Assembly: GCA_049508795.1 (NCBI GenBank)
Contig: JBELAN010000009.1
Coordinates: 64,729-96,728 of the forward strand
Direction: 5' to 3'
DNA: 32,000 nucleotides
DNA from: Sedimentisphaerales bacterium
GTDB taxonomy: Bacteria > Planctomycetota > Phycisphaerae > Sedimentisphaerales > Anaerobacaceae
The notes under the pieces were generated by a model that ran no database searches, was not told the origin of the DNA, and worked only from the letters and a program-made list of their open reading frames with translations. This document shows positions 3,468 through 32,000 of the stretch, piece after piece. The translations under genes and the position numbers were made by a program. Every line of letters begins with the position of its first letter. The first letter of the stretch is position 1.

Positions 3468-3487
3468 TTCCGCCTACGGCGGACAAG
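3468..3487. repeat. minimal copy of the R1 hairpin repeat family (TTCCGCC-TAC-GGCGGACAAG)
   Basis: It shares both arms (ttccgcc / ggcggacaag) with the R1 module at 29443 and 30937 but lacks the central segment. The 6-bp stem is tccgcc/ggcgga. Confidence 0.45.
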
Positions 3488-27410: not shown

Positions 27411-28847
27411 ATGCTCGATAAGACCATACATATCAAGAGCTTCGGGTGCCAGATGAATAAGTTAGACACAGCTTTGGTTACTTCTGCGCTTAAAAAAGCA
27501 GGGTTTGGCCTGGCTGAGAACGAAAAAGGCGCTGATGTTGTTTTGATAAACACCTGCTCAGTGCGCGAACACGCGGAGCAGCGAGTCTTATCGCATCTTG
27601 GGCATCTAAAACATATCAAAAAATCAAAGCCAAATATGGTGGTTGGGGTAATCGGCTGTATGGCGCAGCGGCTCGGAGCAGAACTGCTCAAAGACAAAAC
27701 GGTTGATATAGTTTGCGGCCCGGCACAAATACCGCAAATTACAGAACTTGTAACTAAAGCGCTGCAGGAAAATAAAAAGACCCTTGCGATAACGGGAAAA
27801 ATCCGCCAGAAATCGGCGGAAAACAAGGCACTGGAAGAGCTTGAGTCGGTTTTTGACAGCGATGATTCACAAGTTCCTGCACAAGCGTATGTTAGGGCGA
27901 TGCGGGGTTGTAATAATTTCTGCTCATATTGCATTGTGCCATATGTGCGCGGGCCGGAAGTATCGCGCCCCCCTGCCGTGATAATCGAACAGATAAAAAG
28001 ACTGGCTGGCAACGGTGTTAAGCTGGTTACGCTGCTGGGGCAAATGGTAAATGCTTATAAATACAACAGTTCGGGGAAAACCCTCTGTCTGGCGGATTTG
28101 CTCTATATGGTGAGCGAAATTGAAGGAATCGAATGGATAAGATTTGTTACAAGTTACCCTGCGGAAGAATATTATGAGCAGATTCTAAAAGCGATGGCGG
28201 ATTTGCCGAAGGTATGTCACTACCTGCATATGCCGGCTCAAAGCGGCTCGGATAAAATCCTAAAAGCAATGAATCGTAACTATACAGCCGGCAAATACTT
28301 AGAGCTGATAGAAAAGGCCAGAGATATTGTGCCGGGGATTGCAATTTCAGGCGATTTTATGGTTGGGTTTCCCGGGGAAACAGAAGAGGATTTTGGGGAG
28401 ACCATAAGTCTTGTGCAGATCGCGAGATATAAGAACTGCTTTGTATTCAAGTATTCGTCTCGGCCGGGGACGGCGGCGGATAAACGGTTACAAGATGATG
28501 TGCCGGAAGAAGTTAAGAAAAGACGGAACATAGAATTATTGGCGGTGCAGGAAAAAATAAGCGATGAGTTGGCGAAGCAATTTTTAGGGAAAGAAGTGAA
28601 AGTTCTGGTCGAGGGATTGAGTAAGAAGGCGGTTTCGACAAGCTCACCGCAGGCGGGAGTAAGTCCTTGTGGGGAAAAGGGTTATCCGCCTTCGCTAAAG
28701 CTACGGCGGACAAGTCCGCAGTTGGTCGGGCGGACGGCGGAGGACTGGATAGTTGTTTTTGACGGGCCGGCGAAGTTGGCTGGGGAGTTTGCAAAAGTGA
28801 AAATAACGAGGACGAGTCCACTAACTCTTTTTGGGGAGATGATTTAA
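27411..28847 (+). CDS. miaB: tRNA-2-methylthio-N6-dimethylallyladenosine synthase (methylthiotransferase)
   Basis: The N-terminal cluster region is IKSFGCQMN...NTCSVRE. The radical SAM motif is CNNFCSYC. The C-terminal TRAM domain is LVGRTAEDWIVVFDG...KVKITRTSPLTLFGE. It carries an atypical insert of about 27 aa before the TRAM domain. Confidence 0.92.
   Translation: MLDKTIHIKSFGCQMNKLDTALVTSALKKAGFGLAENEKGADVVLINTCSVREHAEQRVLSHLGHLKHIKKSKPNMVVGVIGCMAQRLGAELLKDKTVDIVCGPAQIPQITELVTKALQENKKTLAITGKIRQKSAENKALEELESVFDSDDSQVPAQAYVRAMRGCNNFCSYCIVPYVRGPEVSRPPAVIIEQIKRLAGNGVKLVTLLGQMVNAYKYNSSGKTLCLADLLYMVSEIEGIEWIRFVTSYPAEEYYEQILKAMADLPKVCHYLHMPAQSGSDKILKAMNRNYTAGKYLELIEKARDIVPGIAISGDFMVGFPGETEEDFGETISLVQIARYKNCFVFKYSSRPGTAADKRLQDDVPEEVKKRRNIELLAVQEKISDELAKQFLGKEVKVLVEGLSKKAVSTSSPQAGVSPCGEKGYPPSLKLRRTSPQLVGRTAEDWIVVFDGPAKLAGEFAKVKITRTSPLTLFGEMI
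28680..28722 (+). repeat. R1-like hairpin repeat copy embedded in-frame in miaB
   Basis: atccgccttcgctaaagctacggcggacaagtccgc aligns by hand to R1 (ttccgccgtcgccaaagggctatggcggacaagtaggc) at about 30 of 36 positions with one 2-nt gap. The hairpin arms are retained. Confidence 0.5.
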
Positions 28848-28894
28848 AATGGGGAATATAGGTAATTGGGGATAGAACCAAATGCGCAAGTTCG

Positions 28895-29002
28895 TGTTTG
28901 AAAACGGTTGAAAACGGTCAAAAGTTGTAGAAAAATTTGGAAAAATGTATGGGAAAGTGAGAAAAATGTATAGAAATGTTTGAAAATATTCGACAATTTT
29001 TT
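28895..29002. repeat. degenerate 10-11-bp tandem array of GAAAA/A-tract units (about 9 copies), ending in a T6 run
   Basis: A-tracts start at 28901, 28911, 28920, 28931, 28941, 28954, 28962, 28974 and 28983, a mean spacing of about 10.3 bp. The first two units, ttgaaaacgg, are identical. Confidence 0.6.
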
Positions 29003-29069
29003 ACCTCCCCTGCGCATTTGATTGAAATTTTTTGTCGGCCACAAAGACACGAAGGCGCGAAGAAAATTA

Positions 29070-29105
29070 GACACTGATTAACACAGATTTACACTGTTAT
29101 TTTTT
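29070..29105. repeat. short-period repeat submodule (gacactgatta/acacagattt/acactg plus a T-run)
   Basis: It has the same design (three 9-10-nt units followed by a T-tract) as the submodules at 31018-31157. Confidence 0.55.
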
Positions 29106-29335
29106 GCCGCCGAGTACACAGAGACGGAGAAAAATCCTAAATACTAAACCCTAAATCCTAAACAAATTCAAATGACCAAAATAAAAAATTCAAAACGGAC
29201 TACGCCTGACACTGACGCGAAATTAAAAAAGTTTTCCGTCCTTCGCAGTAGCAAACTACTTGCTATGGAGGACAAGGCGGCGGGGGAAAAAACTCGTCGC
29301 TGGTTAGTTGAGTTCAGCAAATCGGCGTCAGAAAA

Positions 29336-29365
29336 TATATTAGTATGTGCATATATACTAATATA
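29336..29365. repeat. AT-rich palindrome: perfect 11-bp arms TATATTAGTAT / ATACTAATATA around an 8-nt centre
   Basis: The arms are at 29336-29346 and 29355-29365. The centre, gtgcatat, is itself partly self-complementary. Confidence 0.6.
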
Positions 29366-29442
29366 GTGATTTAACTATCAGGGGTTTTTAGGTGAGGGGG
29401 TTGAGAGTCGTGGCCCGGGACCCGTGCCTCGTGACTTCCGCT

Positions 29443-29510
29443 TTCGCTTCCGCCGTCGCCAAAGGGCTATGGCGGACAAGTAGGCTACGGAGAACAGGAC
29501 GGCGGACAAG
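29443..29510 (+). repeat. R1 repeat module, copy A (68 nt, hairpin-forming)
   Basis: It is identical over 68 of 68 nt to 30937-31004. It contains the hairpin cttccgccgtcgcc-aaag-ggctatggcggacaag. Confidence 0.9.
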
Positions 29511-29540
29511 AGTTGGGCGATTTTGGGGGAGCAAGGATTA

Positions 29541-29607
29541 ACCGCAGAGCACGCCGAGACCGCAGAGATTTTATTTTTTAATCGCTGATTACGCAGATTA
29601 CGCGGAA
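29541..29607 (+). repeat. R2 repeat module, copy A (67 nt)
   Basis: It is identical over 67 of 67 nt to 31091-31157 (accgcagagcacgccgagaccgcagagat + tttatttttta + atcgctgattacgcagattacgcggaa). Confidence 0.9.
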
Positions 29608-29659
29608 TTTGGTTTGTGGCGGAGGGGATTAAAGGGCGATGTTCGGCTTTGTTTTTCCT

Positions 29660-29689
29660 TTGACTTTTCAGCTACAAAAAACATATAAT
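29660..29689 (+). promoter_or_regulatory. candidate promoter TTGACT-N18-TATAAT for the protease gene
   Basis: A consensus -10 element and a near-consensus -35 element were read directly from the sequence. The -10 element ends about 35 nt upstream of the GTG at 29725. Confidence 0.4.
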
Positions 29690-29724
29690 TGCGTTATTAT
29701 TGTATTTTGACTAAGAGCGAGATT

Positions 29725-30900
29725 GTGAAAAAGCTGGTTTTTATTATCACATATCTACTAATAACCGTTCCTTGCGCTGCTGATACATTTACCAACCGCG
29801 CGACAGGAGAAGTGTTCCACGGTTACGCAACCCAAATAAAGCGTGGCGGTAAAACCCTCATTCGTGTGGGTAATGAAGGCACCGCCAAATATATCGATAT
29901 GGCGGATTATCGCGTCGAGTGGAGCCGAGACGGCCGAAAAAACATAGTCATCGTAATACCAATCAAAGATGCGATATTGCTGGAATGCGAAACGGCAGCG
30001 TTAGAAAAAGCGATTGAGACGAGCTCCAACCAAGGACCGATGTTCATTTTAATTGAGATAGATACGCCGGGCGGCCGAGAAGACCTTATGAAGCGAATCT
30101 GCAGCGCAATCACAAAGGCGGATAATTGCCTGACGGTCGCGTTCGTGAGCGGAGGGGAATACGGCGGGGCATATTCGGCAGGAGCAATTATCGCGCTGGC
30201 GTGCGACCAGATATATATGGCAGAGGATACGGCCATTGGGGCAGCGACGCCAATAATGATGTCGAAGACCGGAGTGAAAGATTTAAAATCAGTTTACGGC
30301 TCGACGGTCGGCGAGAAATTTATGTCCGCGAGCCGGGCGTATATAGCGAGTTTAGCAGAACAAAACGACCGGCCGAGCGCAATAGCCAGGGCGATGGTCG
30401 ACAAAGACATCGAGGTTGTGGAAGTATCTGAGAATAACGAAAGACTTTTTATCGAGCCGAGAGAAAGGAAAAAAGAACAAACTGTAGTTCGAACGTGGAA
30501 CAGAAGGGGGTCGTTGCTTACTTTGACCGCCGGTGAAGCCGTCGAATGCGGGATAGCAAACGGGCTGGCGGGGTCACCCAAGGCGGTTATATCAGCATTG
30601 AAATTTGACAATCCCCGTGTTGTTCCCAACAATGAGGCAGCCAAAGCCAGAAGCGCGTTCGAAGCCGCCAAAGACAAGCTTGAGAAACTGCGAATCAGCA
30701 TCGACCGTTATTCCAAGGAAATCGAAATCTGCAGGGACAAAAACGAGGTAATACGGTTTCTGAACGCGGTCATTAAGAACTACGAAGATGTAATTGCGAT
30801 GGGGAGGTCATATCCTGATTTGGCGATTGACGAAGGGGCGTGCAAAGAAGCAATGAATTCGGCCAAAACTCTGCTCAGAAATATCAAAAAATTGGAGTAG
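29725..30900 (+). CDS. secreted ClpP/crotonase-fold serine protease (NfeD/SppA-like) with helical C-terminal domain
   Basis: LIEIDTPGG and the nucleophile region GGAYSAGAIIALACDQIYM...IGAATPI are typical of NfeD/S49-type proteases. I prefer the GTG at 29725 (MKKLVFIITYLLITVPCAA is a signal peptide) to the TTG at 29689, which overlaps the -10 box. Confidence 0.7.
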   Translation: MKKLVFIITYLLITVPCAADTFTNRATGEVFHGYATQIKRGGKTLIRVGNEGTAKYIDMADYRVEWSRDGRKNIVIVIPIKDAILLECETAALEKAIETSSNQGPMFILIEIDTPGGREDLMKRICSAITKADNCLTVAFVSGGEYGGAYSAGAIIALACDQIYMAEDTAIGAATPIMMSKTGVKDLKSVYGSTVGEKFMSASRAYIASLAEQNDRPSAIARAMVDKDIEVVEVSENNERLFIEPRERKKEQTVVRTWNRRGSLLTLTAGEAVECGIANGLAGSPKAVISALKFDNPRVVPNNEAAKARSAFEAAKDKLEKLRISIDRYSKEIEICRDKNEVIRFLNAVIKNYEDVIAMGRSYPDLAIDEGACKEAMNSAKTLLRNIKKLE

Positions 30901-30936
30901 TTTTCGTTTTCGGGGGAGATTAATTCTTTACCCGGC

Positions 30937-31004
30937 TTCGCTTCCGCCGTCGCCAAAGGGCTATGGCGGACAAGTAGGCTACGGAGAACAGGACGGCGGA
31001 CAAG
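30937..31004 (+). repeat. R1 repeat module, copy B
   Basis: It is identical to 29443-29510 and begins 36 nt after the protease stop codon. Confidence 0.9.
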
Positions 31005-31017
31005 CGAAGAAAAATTA

Positions 31018-31087
31018 ACCACGAATGAACACGAATGAGCACGATTTTTTTGCCACAGATGAACACGGATTGACACAGATTTTTTAT
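31018..31087 (+). repeat. two short-period repeat submodules (cacgaatga x3 + T7; cacagatga/acacggattg/acacagat + T-run)
   Basis: Each is three tandem 9-10-nt units followed by a T-tract. Together they fill the longer R1-R2 spacer of copy B. Confidence 0.65.
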
Positions 31088-31090
31088 ATC

Positions 31091-31157
31091 ACCGCAGAGC
31101 ACGCCGAGACCGCAGAGATTTTATTTTTTAATCGCTGATTACGCAGATTACGCGGAA
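31091..31157 (+). repeat. R2 repeat module, copy B
   Basis: It is identical to 29541-29607. Confidence 0.9.
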
Positions 31158-31275
31158 AATTTTGTTGTTGTAAAACCGAGACGCTGCGCGAATGCAAAAT
31201 GCGGCGAGGAAAATCAATCCTCCTTCGATGAATCTATGGAGGACGCTACGCGAAATAAACGGCCACTGTTTTTCC

Positions 31276-32000
31276 TTAATTTTCAGATTTTTTGTTGCTC
31301 CAGAGGCCTAACTGTTTTTCCTTTGCCTGCTTCTCCAAATAATCGAACTGCTTCATAAACTGGAACGGCTCATATATATAATTATAGGCGTAGCCATCTG
31401 CGATGAGCTTGGCATTGACCAAAGTGCCATCTTCCAAAAAGACATATCTCAGAAGCCGGTTGTATTTATCTCTGTTTGACTGCATCGGGTCGGGGATTAA
31501 ATAGGCCAACTTGTTTTCCAAAAGCTGCTTAGCATATTGGACGGCTTCGGGGCCGAAATAATCATTCTGCGGATGATTAGGATGTGCTATCTCAGGAGCA
31601 TCGATTCCAATCAGCCGGACAGGTTCAATTTTTCCTGCAATATCGACTCTGATAGTGTCACCGTCAATTACTTCCACAACGCGGTATGTAGGCGGGGCTT
31701 CTCTTTTAACAGGCAATGGTTCGTGGGACAGAATTTTAATTTGGCTGAGGTTATCGAGAATAATCTGCGACCGGCCTTGATAAGCCCTTATCAGGCCGGT
31801 GATTTCCACAGTTTTTCCTTCGTATTGCTGCGGATTGGGAAATTTGTGTGCGTCCTTATTAAAAATTGTAACACCAAACGGACAGGTTTTGTAATCCTGG
31901 CAGAAGTTCAGAAATACAGTACCTTTTTCAGAAGTATAAACATGGTCTATTTTGCCAGAGACGCAAGCGTATTCTCCAATGTGGTCGGGGGCCTGCGTGT
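31276..32000 (-). CDS. OB-fold domain + thermonuclease (SNase-like) protein, N-terminus outside the window
   Basis: The SNase motif is VVEVIDGDTIRVD...VRLIGIDAPE...YGPEA...DKYNRLLRYV. The same frame stays open upstream of the ORF-track GTG (31809) to base 32000. There it reads HIGEYACVSGKIDHVYTSEKGTVFLNF...YEGKTVEITGLIRAYQGRSQIIL, an OB-fold-like domain. Confidence 0.8.
   Translation of the reverse strand, partial: TQAPDHIGEYACVSGKIDHVYTSEKGTVFLNFCQDYKTCPFGVTIFNKDAHKFPNPQQYEGKTVEITGLIRAYQGRSQIILDNLSQIKILSHEPLPVKREAPPTYRVVEVIDGDTIRVDIAGKIEPVRLIGIDAPEIAHPNHPQNDYFGPEAVQYAKQLLENKLAYLIPDPMQSNRDKYNRLLRYVFLEDGTLVNAKLIADGYAYNYIYEPFQFMKQFDYLEKQAKEKQLGLWSNKKSEN

Follow-up and report, generated by a model that had tools for sequence, protein, structure and literature searches.

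Elements that are defined by a hairpin, insert beside a short target motif and leave no target duplication are familiar from the REPIN/RAYT systems and from IS200/IS605-type single-strand transposition; MITEs (Correia/NEMIS, ERIC, Nezha) are 70-300 bp long, carry terminal inverted repeats of 15-30 bp and generate target-site duplications. The Rickettsia palindromic elements (RPEs; Ogata et al. 2000) are, in the accounts given of them in PMC10969869 and PMC3733652, palindromic sequences that lie in frame in essential genes and are translated, in surface regions where they are thought to be compatible with the fold; those of the RPE-1 type are outlined as ~100-150 bp long and as residing in obligate intracellular Rickettsia (PMC10969869). 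In-frame insertions of REP type in housekeeping genes have already been catalogued in many bacteria (Di Nocera et al. 2013, PMC3733652), and different REPs occupy about the same recB site in two Xanthomonas species (PMC3733652). The phenomenon of intragenic repeats is already known; the repeat family and the host described here are new.

A preliminary description of the 32,000-nucleotide stretch analysed here (the window) had reported a hairpin repeat of an intergenic family, R1, in frame inside miaB and had likened it to the RPEs, a likeness that is apt in that an in-frame hairpin unit does lie within this gene (Table 1). The extra DNA in miaB probably represents selfish, REP-like stem-loop repeats that entered a permissive inter-domain linker in frame and are predicted to be translated as extra disordered loop residues: site B holds a discrete 30-nt unit of an otherwise intergenic family that includes the R1 modules, and site A a single unit, 24 nt long, from another hairpin family. 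In common with intragenic REPs (PMC3733652), such units form GC-rich stem-loops of modest length (20-40 nt) with stems of 6-9 bp, their loops vary in length within a family and are self-complementary when long, the copies found are mostly intergenic and near gene 3' ends, and they occur occasionally as single, dimeric or nested in-frame copies in housekeeping genes, tRNA-modification genes included. The sizes found here (19-32 nt, 6-bp stem) agree with those of a REP palindrome (20-40 nt, stem of 5-13 bp). Membership of the GTAG or CGTC REP superfamilies was rejected because the conserved unpaired tail is CAAG rather than either tag; GTAG follows the unit in the R1 composite only (CAAGTAGG) and is absent after the miaB, 3469 and L161 copies. 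The supplements of PMC3733652 contain neither GGCGGA nor miaB, which places the present family outside that catalogue, and, unlike in REP systems, no associated RAYT (nor any transposase or RAYT-like gene) was found in the window of this uncultured Sedimentisphaerales host or among the called neighbours in relatives. With the RPEs the units share in-frame insertion at a predicted structurally permissive position of an intact gene. They differ in length (24-30 nt, 8-10 residues), in belonging to unrelated sequence families, in residing in free-living anaerobes and, unlike RPEs as outlined in those sources, in varying in presence among close relatives; their length and their host (Sedimentisphaerales/Phycisphaerae) set them outside the RPE families.

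Table 1. Features of the miaB locus and of related hairpins in the window.
Feature	Position	Strand	Remarks
Minimal family member, 3-nt loop (TCCGCC-TAC-GGCGGA-CAAG)	3469..3487	+	intergenic
miaB CDS (tRNA ms2i6A37 methylthiotransferase)	27411..28847	+	intact ORF, 478 aa
Site C region, native coding TCCGCCAGAAATCGGCGGA (IRQKSAE)	27802..27820	+	itself hairpin-like
Site A insertion, a single unit (24 nt) of the hairpin family with loop TTCGACAAGCTCA	28629..28652	+	read as AVSTSSPQ
Native clade-specific loop AGVSPCGEKGY	28653..28685	+	outside any repeat, by ortholog comparison
Site B insertion, 30-nt hairpin TCCGCC-TTCGCTAAAGCTAC-GGCGGA-CAAG	28685..28714	+	28686-28715 in codon terms
Site B hairpin 5' arm TCCGCC	28685..28690	+	
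Site B hairpin 3' arm GGCGGA	28705..28710	+	followed by CAAG tail, 28711-28714
Degenerate family member (TCCGTCC...GGAGGACAAG)	29235..29276	+	long self-complementary loop
R1 intergenic module, copy a	29438..29510	+	complete unit 29449-29480 nested in loop of outer unit
R1 intergenic module, copy b	30932..31004	+	starts 32 nt past stop codon of NfeD-like gene

Pfam assigned the window MiaB an N-terminal UPF0004 domain, a Radical_SAM core with the CxxxCxxC motif (C167/C171/C174) and a C-terminal TRAM domain, and the cluster cysteines C49, C83, C167, C171 and C174 were invariant in an alignment of the MiaB family. The solved Bacteroides MiaB, 7MJV, matched at E=6.6e-100, and an AF2 model displayed the MiaB fold, with TM values of 0.83-0.91 against 7MJX/7MJY in Foldseek. 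An exact-protein look-up gave no entry that begins at this start codon; the protein is the same as P0001. The enzyme presumably still works with its inserts.

The junction between SKK and the TRAM domain reads SKK-AVSTSSPQAGVSPCGEKGYPPSLKLRRTSP-QLVGRT, as against SKR-SRD-QLFGRT in 7MJV, so that the window MiaB is ~27 residues longer there, as had been estimated. The segment 28629-28722 is likewise in frame and stop-free, but its reading as one 94-nt insert of the R1 family did not survive comparison with orthologues: it comprises two independent in-frame insertions, only the second of which belongs to that family, around a native loop of 11 residues. Since AGVSPCGEKGY is this native clade loop, the repeats account for 18 of the ~27 extra residues. 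A 12-residue loop of the native type separates SKK from QL(VGRT) in almost every one of 55 Sedimentisphaerales-type loci, and a 12-residue SKK-QL loop is found in most of 120 MiaB homologues as well. A single element bounded by a target duplication was rejected because the pieces occur separately in relatives: L081 has the 24-nt unit of site A alone, and L165, L166, L169 and L085 have the 30-nt unit of site B without that of site A. The direct repeat noted earlier does exist (ACAAG(CTCA)CCGCAG at 28638-28652 and ACAAG(T)CCGCAG at 28710-28721) but is not a target-site duplication; it appears because a GACAAG...CCGCAG motif is common to the two separate units. The AF2 model shows the inserts as a predicted low-confidence loop linking the radical-SAM and TRAM domains (residues 406-433, pLDDT <50, after the strand at 395-403 and before the first strand of TRAM at 437-441), the location that the preliminary description had proposed.

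The site B unit, whose predicted translation is (Y)PPSLKLRRT(S), retains both hairpin arms and the core GGCGGACAAG, as first described, and its loop ends are TTCGC..GCTAC. Local alignment of 28680-28722 with R1 gave 28 matches, 3 mismatches and one 2-nt gap (score 40), against a mean of 12.8 (sd 2.4, maximum 26) for 2000 dinucleotide shuffles (z ~11), and the claimed resemblance is thereby sustained. Ordinary lineage-specific expansion of the loop by local slippage or duplication, with a coincidental likeness to R1, would suit a linker whose length is commonly variable and whose native form in this clade already exceeds that of Bacteroides MiaB by 9 residues; such an origin is nevertheless highly improbable given a similarity ~11 sd above shuffles, an exact copy of the 30-mer in an unrelated contig (L176, 59% GC), its recurrence in a 70%-identical orthologue and a 60-nt filler at site B of L164 that matches R1 at 36/40 positions.

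Within the 32-kb window, the pattern TCCGCC-N3-30-GGCGGA occurred 5 times against 0.08 expected, and a 6-bp TCCGCC/GGCGGA stem followed by unpaired CAAG is found at 28685-28714, 29449-29480, 30943-30974 and 3469-3487. The two R1 copies are 97% identical, and their nested architecture recurs inside the miaB of L164 and L160. Members with long loops share the loop ends (T/G)TCGC...GCTA(C/T) and a small covarying inner helix. In an alignment of 14 copies 97.6% of the cells were paired; the outer stem is invariant owing to the criterion by which copies were collected, so that covariation is informative for the inner helix only, where columns 13 and 16 pair as C-G in 6 sequences and as U-A in 5. 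Folding energies were modestly better than those of shuffles (z -1.4 to -2.3). A reading of the units as intrinsic terminators was rejected, as no T-runs lie 3' of them and a terminator scan was empty at their positions. Further copies were found in L161 (3 intergenic), L168, L169 and unrelated contigs; the non-miaB copies in relatives are all intergenic, and family relatives in other contigs frequently lie directly 3' of a stop codon. A pattern scan of a viral collection gave 125 matches, most apparently due to chance, and ~12 of them had the family loop signature. Rfam recognized no family in the whole window, in 28500-31300 at a relaxed threshold or in 12 loci of the second family; BLAST of a plasmid collection with the units gave chance matches to Streptomyces coding sequence only, and a literature search for the literal unit sequences gave unrelated primers only. 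Among 90 word-sharing candidates from a search for PPSLKLRRTS-type peptides in other host proteins, none reached E<=10.

The site A unit is a member of a repeat family other than that of site B and R1. GGCGG stands at both of its ends, which leaves as many as 4 nt of ambiguity in its boundaries, and most orthologues are empty at this position (AAG AAG GCG GGx); L160 carries a 72-nt version. The TTCGACAAGCTCA-loop family is represented by 21 loci in the viral collection, with covarying stems and a 24-nt tandem spacing, and by an intergenic relative in L161 (13380); a search for a tRNA or tmRNA origin of this family found none.

Close relatives either have a given unit or lack it, always as an exact block. 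A site B unit of 24, 30, 60 or 78 nt was found in 12 of 120 close MiaB homologues; ~90% of close orthologues have no insert, so the suggested comparison with close relatives did find mostly empty alleles (TAT CCG CAG at site B in L081, L168, L082 and L083). MiaB scans of genome and metagenome contigs yielded, among the matches listed, mostly distant orthologues, and close alleles were collected individually. The sequences all come from metagenome assemblies and the units are repetitive, which might suggest chimeric, repeat-induced joins; this explanation is highly improbable, the same in-frame fillers, with a constant codon boundary and collinear flanks, being present in at least 10 assemblies made independently from JGI, ENA and Logan samples. 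Carriers of site B units are scattered over a neighbor-joining tree, requiring 10 Fitch steps of gain or loss (7-10 in bootstrap resamples), on a tree of one gene, miaB, where recombination and recurrent events look alike. The units are putatively mobile, recently mobile or readily lost.

The nucleotide conservation of the site B unit far exceeds that of its host gene. The genes of the window and L165 are 86.5% identical and their units 30/30; those of the window and L085 are 70.1% identical (47.6% at third positions), with units 29/30 and 9/10, respectively; and L161 and L167, whose genes are 85% identical, have B24 units identical at 24/24 positions. An identical 30-nt unit is also present in L166 and L169. 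Three kinds of filler occupy the identical site: the 24-nt B24, the 30-nt B30 and a nested 60-nt unit.

One or two ancient insertions could have produced this pattern if miaB alleles then recombined between strains and units were lost precisely by slippage at flanking repeats, with no repeated site-specific insertion. Both inserts are indeed surrounded by 5-nt direct repeats (TCCGC at site B, GGCGG at site A) of which empty sites retain one copy, an arrangement that favours precise deletion, and the single-gene tree accommodates recombination equally well. We consider this history rather unlikely as a full account, since the loops of the three fillers found at exactly one site are not interconvertible by simple deletion, nested and intergenic insertions have no flanking repeats, and the codons adjoining the L085 unit (GAT TAT / CCG CAA TTG ATT) differ from those of the window, so that nothing there looks like an imported patch; some of the patchiness could still stem from exchange of alleles among strains in place of repeated insertion.

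The presence of an identical 24-nt unit at a third position, site C, also argues against ancient insertion. P0007 and P0011 carry a 24-nt unit inserted directly 5' of the site C TCCGCC, and in L290 and L168 the unit there is TCCGCCACAAGGAAGGCGGACAAG, identical to B24. It reads RHKEGGQV at site C as against PPQGRRTS at site B; in the site C phase B30 would contain a TAA stop, and B24 was the only unit seen there. Survivors of a selection filter would be those inserts whose length is a multiple of 3, that contain no stop codon and that lie in tolerant surface linkers, the frame-preserving lengths being partly an effect of ascertainment, as the homologues retrieved were the intact ones only.

Alternatively, the insert may have been kept because it is useful, through K/R residues near the RNA-binding TRAM domain or through an mRNA hairpin that regulates or stabilizes miaB. 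PPSLKLRRTS, a basic peptide, lies next to TRAM, the units are conserved above neutral expectation and the inner-helix covariation agrees with selection for structure; the conservation would, however, be explained equally well by recent copies made from conserved masters in the genome. Usefulness is improbable when ~90% of close orthologues have no insert, when the other reading frame used at site C leaves no conserved peptide, when unrelated repeat families enter the same MiaB loop and when no terminator-like T-run follows the units.

With selfish repeats as the favoured explanation, the manner of insertion may be considered. In L161, an intergenic 30-nt unit lies between ACCAA and ACGCGCAAG, where the window, L162, L168 and L081 are empty, and no target-site duplication was found at this insertion. 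Insertion was frequently just 5' of TCCGC(C) in the target, including sites B and C, although the target motif is inconsistent across all four resolved insertions. The units could have arrived by single-strand hairpin transposition of the REP/RAYT (IS200/IS605-like) type, or by microhomology-guided copying from another genomic copy; the lack of duplication in the clean intergenic case and the position 5' of TCCGC(C) fit either route. In both respects the units resemble REPIN/RAYT and IS200/IS605 elements. They differ from REPIN/RAYT in that no RAYT/TnpA was identified and that they are mostly single or nested rather than inverted doublets. MITEs are alike in being non-autonomous dispersed repeats capable of in-frame fusions, but a total unit length of 24-30 nt, the lack of terminal inverted repeats of 15-30 bp and the absence of a duplication at the L161 insertion led us to reject that class. 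It is possible, if still doubtful, that the 24-30-nt TCCGCC...GGCGGACAAG hairpins are discrete mobile units still active at present, to be counted with the smallest known, which a putative trans-acting enzyme would move without target duplication, tending to land 5' of TCCGC-like sequences and beside stop codons; they would then be common to distantly related bacteria (47% to 68% GC), and MiaB linkers would be a trap recording repeated independent insertions.

These observations add free-living uncultured Planctomycetota, and very short units (8-10 codons), to the known range of probable selfish DNA within protein-coding sequence. At least 3 repeat families are involved in the MiaB linker insertions, and three linker sites of a single essential-type enzyme, each known with and without an insert and with exact unit boundaries, form a natural data set usable for asking how REP-like hairpins without a RAYT spread and for mapping the insertion-tolerant positions of MiaB. 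By inflating loop lengths, such repeats create spurious 'lineage-specific insertions' in protein alignments and structure predictions from MAGs. Across the insert junctions of the window MiaB, the predicted peptides are GYPPSLK and AVSTSSPQAGVSPCGEK.

The solved Bacteroides MiaB matched the window protein at E=6.6e-100, and an AlphaFold model of the latter (67 homologues) superposed on 7MJX/7MJY with TM 0.83-0.91; the cluster cysteines are conserved in the MiaB family alignment. The nearest database proteins were MiaB of Sedimentisphaerales/Phycisphaerae MAGs, and one homologue protein, P0001, was identical. The remaining genes of the window (47.6% GC) are ordinary housekeeping genes, and no transposase was found in its gene content.

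The preliminary description had taken 28629-28722 as one in-frame hairpin element of the R1 family, adding about 27 residues between the radical-SAM core and the TRAM domain. Compared with the Bacteroides junction, SKR-SRD-QLFGRT, that of the window, SKK-AVSTSSPQAGVSPCGEKGYPPSLKLRRTSP-QLVGRT, is indeed longer by about 27 residues. The 120 closest homologues were aligned and the junctions of 55 Sedimentisphaerales-type loci compared, which delimited the insertion and revealed that the native state of the clade is SKK, 12 residues and QLVGRT (for example AGVNPCGEKGYP or PHLNSAExxxNP), from which the window departs not by a single 94-nt element but by two separate blocks, both absent from the native state. 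Among the loci compared (L numbers), block 1 occurs alone in L081 and block 2 alone in L165, L166, L169 and L085; the 11 residues between the blocks are thus native, and the flanking direct repeat, previously read as the bounds of one insert, has its halves in two independent units.

Coordinates of miaB, its inserted units and related repeats (window positions unless a locus is named)
Feature	Position	Strand	Length	Remarks
miaB ORF	27411-28847	+	478 aa	MiaB; UPF0004, Radical_SAM and TRAM domains
Block 1 (site A)	28629-28652		24 nt	AVSTSSPQ, directly after SKK
Block 2 (site B)	28686-28715		30 nt	PPSLKLRRTS, between Tyr codon TAT and CCG CAG
R1 modules	29438-29510; 30932-31004			97% identical to each other
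Second intergenic repeat	29541-29607; 31091-31157		67 nt	copies 100% identical (ACCGCAGAGCACGCCGAGACCGCAGAG...GATTACGCAGATTACGCGGAA)
Intergenic R1-type copies in relatives	L161 11433, 11804, 13975; L168 14306; L169 7170
Unit right after stop codon, unrelated higher-GC contigs	L173 1143; L212 1426, 6750; L211 745; L217 6127
Intergenic relative of site-A unit	L161 13380-13402
Third hairpin type, P0007	L168 11249-11290		45 nt	in frame
Intergenic relative of third type	L165 2034-2059			upstream of DUF2971 gene

The two intergenic R1 modules were borne out, as was the likeness of 28680-28722 to them; the local alignment pairs 28 identical and 3 differing positions, opens a single 2-nt gap and scores 40 against 12.8±2.4 (maximum 26) in 2000 dinucleotide shuffles. 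Apart from itself, the 30-mer is matched best in the window by both R1 modules and by a minimal copy at 3469. Five instances of TCCGCC-N3-30-GGCGGA lie in the window, where 0.08 would be expected, and every one is on the + strand. These hairpins, at 3469, 27802, 28685, 29449 and 30943, are co-oriented with neighbouring + strand genes, although with n=5 a strand or transcription bias is only suggestive. Loop length across the family is 3 nt (TAC or ACA), 8 nt or 14-16 nt. Long loops have TTCGC..GCTAC ends in common and contain a small inner helix with covariation: at column pair 13-16, 6 sequences have C-G and 5 have U-A. Folding energies were only modestly better than those of shuffles (z -1.4 to -2.3), and no Rfam family was matched. 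Each R1 module is followed by one copy of the 67-nt repeat, with short reiterated motifs (cacgaatgaacacgaatgagcacga; ctaaatactaaaccctaaatcctaaac) in the nearby spacers; downstream of both miaB and the NfeD-like gene, the intergenic DNA is a mosaic of modules.

Site B, which reads TAT CCG CAG when empty, carries a unit in 12 of the 120 homologues: a 30-nt filler (CCGCCTTCGCTAAAGCTACGGCGGACAAGT) in the window, P0002, P0003, P0005, P0020 and P0096, a 24-nt filler (CCGCCACAAGGAAGGCGGACAAGT) in P0004, P0008, P0012 and P0021, and 60-nt fillers in P0006 and P0109, in which the loop of one unit encloses another complete unit. Intergenic R1 has the same nested architecture, and L164 matched R1 at 36/40 positions. 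After its 24-nt unit, P0012 has an additional 54-nt in-frame hairpin-rich block (GGCCCGCTTCGCCTGCGAAGCGAGACGGGC..., L163 4183-4236); P0058 and P0114 have yet other loop expansions. On a neighbour-joining tree computed without the loop, carriers were scattered, with insert-free sisters beside each, and Fitch parsimony required 10 changes (7-10 in bootstrap resamples). Conservation of the unit was far above that of its host gene: between the window and L085 the gene is 70.1% identical (47.6% at third positions), whereas the unit matches at 29/30 nucleotides and 9/10 third positions; the gene and unit values are 86.5% and 30/30 for the window against L165, and 85% and 24/24 for L161 against L167, which carry the 24-nt unit. 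The scatter of carriers probably stems in part from exchange of alleles between strains by recombination and from precise deletion between the 5-nt repeats at the flanks; the codons adjoining the unit differ between L085 and the window, and thus nothing suggests that a longer patch was imported.

A search for the 24-nt variant found, in P0007 (L168) and P0011 (L290), an inserted unit, TCCGCCACAAGGAAGG(C/T)GGACAAG, that follows GKI in the linker joining the N-terminal domain to the radical-SAM domain (site C). Here it is translated in another frame, as RHKEGGQV, and the L290 copy is identical (24/24) to site-B copies. Since one 24-nt unit is read in two frames, what is conserved is DNA or RNA, not a peptide. 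This frame change, and the absence of the unit from ~90% of orthologues, make it unlikely that the peptide has a selected function. In the phase of site C a 30-nt unit would yield a TAA stop and a 24-nt unit stays open, and the observed occupancy agrees. Sites A and B are modelled as part of a loop between core and TRAM; residues 406-433 (pLDDT below 50) separate the last core strand (395-403) from the first strand of TRAM (437-441), and site C falls within another low-confidence segment, 128-136. Given these positions and the conserved cysteines, the inserts are best read as tolerated expansions of surface linkers, and survival of units in genes would be limited to tolerated length, phase and position. 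Native miaB at 27802-27827, TCCGCCAGAAATCGGCGGAAAACAAG (IRQKSAENK), resembles a hairpin of the family whose loop is 7 nt, and its linker is ~9 residues longer than in Bacteroides MiaB. This sequence may represent an old insertion in decay, or it may draw new units to site C.

Outside miaB, exact unit boundaries were obtained from an intergenic 30-nt unit of L161, located between ACCAA and ACGCGCAAG, at a position empty in the window, L162, L168 and L081. No target duplication was present at this insertion, as would fit single-strand transposition of the IS200/IS605 type; RAYT-like genes were not seen in the window or in the called neighbours of relatives. Different family members recur at one nucleotide position in site B, and a native TCCGC(C) directly follows the unit at sites B and C alike; both observations suggest a target preference, or else copying guided by microhomology. 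A pattern scan of a viral-contig collection returned mostly chance matches and about a dozen true relatives, including an exact 30-mer copy in L176, a 59%-GC contig. Several copies abut a stop codon on their 5' side (TGA|TCCGCC or TAA|TCCGCC). In L176 and L186 long ORFs overlap the unit with their final codons, so that it forms C-terminal extensions and not internal inserts.

Together these data support the view that the miaB inserts are REP/RPE-like selfish hairpin units that come and go as exact blocks. Catalogued examples of REPs within genes span many bacteria and include tRNA-modification genes and coincident sites in recB (PMC3733652); among intragenic repeats, the classic example is that of the Rickettsia RPEs (PMC3733652; PMC10969869). 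Unlike REPs, the window hairpin family lacks the GTAG or CGTC tag; it is absent from the intragenic-REP catalogue (PMC3733652), and no literature match by sequence was found. The phenomenon is therefore already known, the R1-type family itself is new to the record, and the population-level record of the miaB repeats is richer than usual.

The site-A block, a hairpin GCGG-TTTCGACAAGCTCA-CCGC that reads GFDKLTAG in another frame and has a 72-nt version in P0109, belongs to a second family, distinct from R1. A scan for TTCGACAAGCTCANNGCAGG recovered 21 loci (L291-L311; GC 0.33 to 0.72); this 24-nt repeat is very widely distributed, on contigs of 33% to 72% GC. Its 3-4 bp stems covary (CCC/GGG, CAC/GTG, CGG/CCG) around an invariant 13-nt loop, TTCGACAAGCTCA, and on some contigs it forms tandem arrays with a 24-nt period, the size of the miaB block. 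No Rfam family, tRNA link or literature match was found for it. The same MiaB loop holds a third hairpin type in P0007, CCCCGC-AGTTTTGC-CAAA-GCAAAACT-AAA-GCGGGG (folding z -3.4). The miaB neighbourhood differs among close relatives (L161, L162, L165, L166, L168, L169), with a small GIY-YIG nuclease-domain gene directly upstream in some and AbiGi, DUF2971 or PLD/DpnI_C-type genes flanking miaB in others; the intergenic DNA close downstream of miaB is very indel-rich, even between L161 and L162, whose MiaB proteins are identical.
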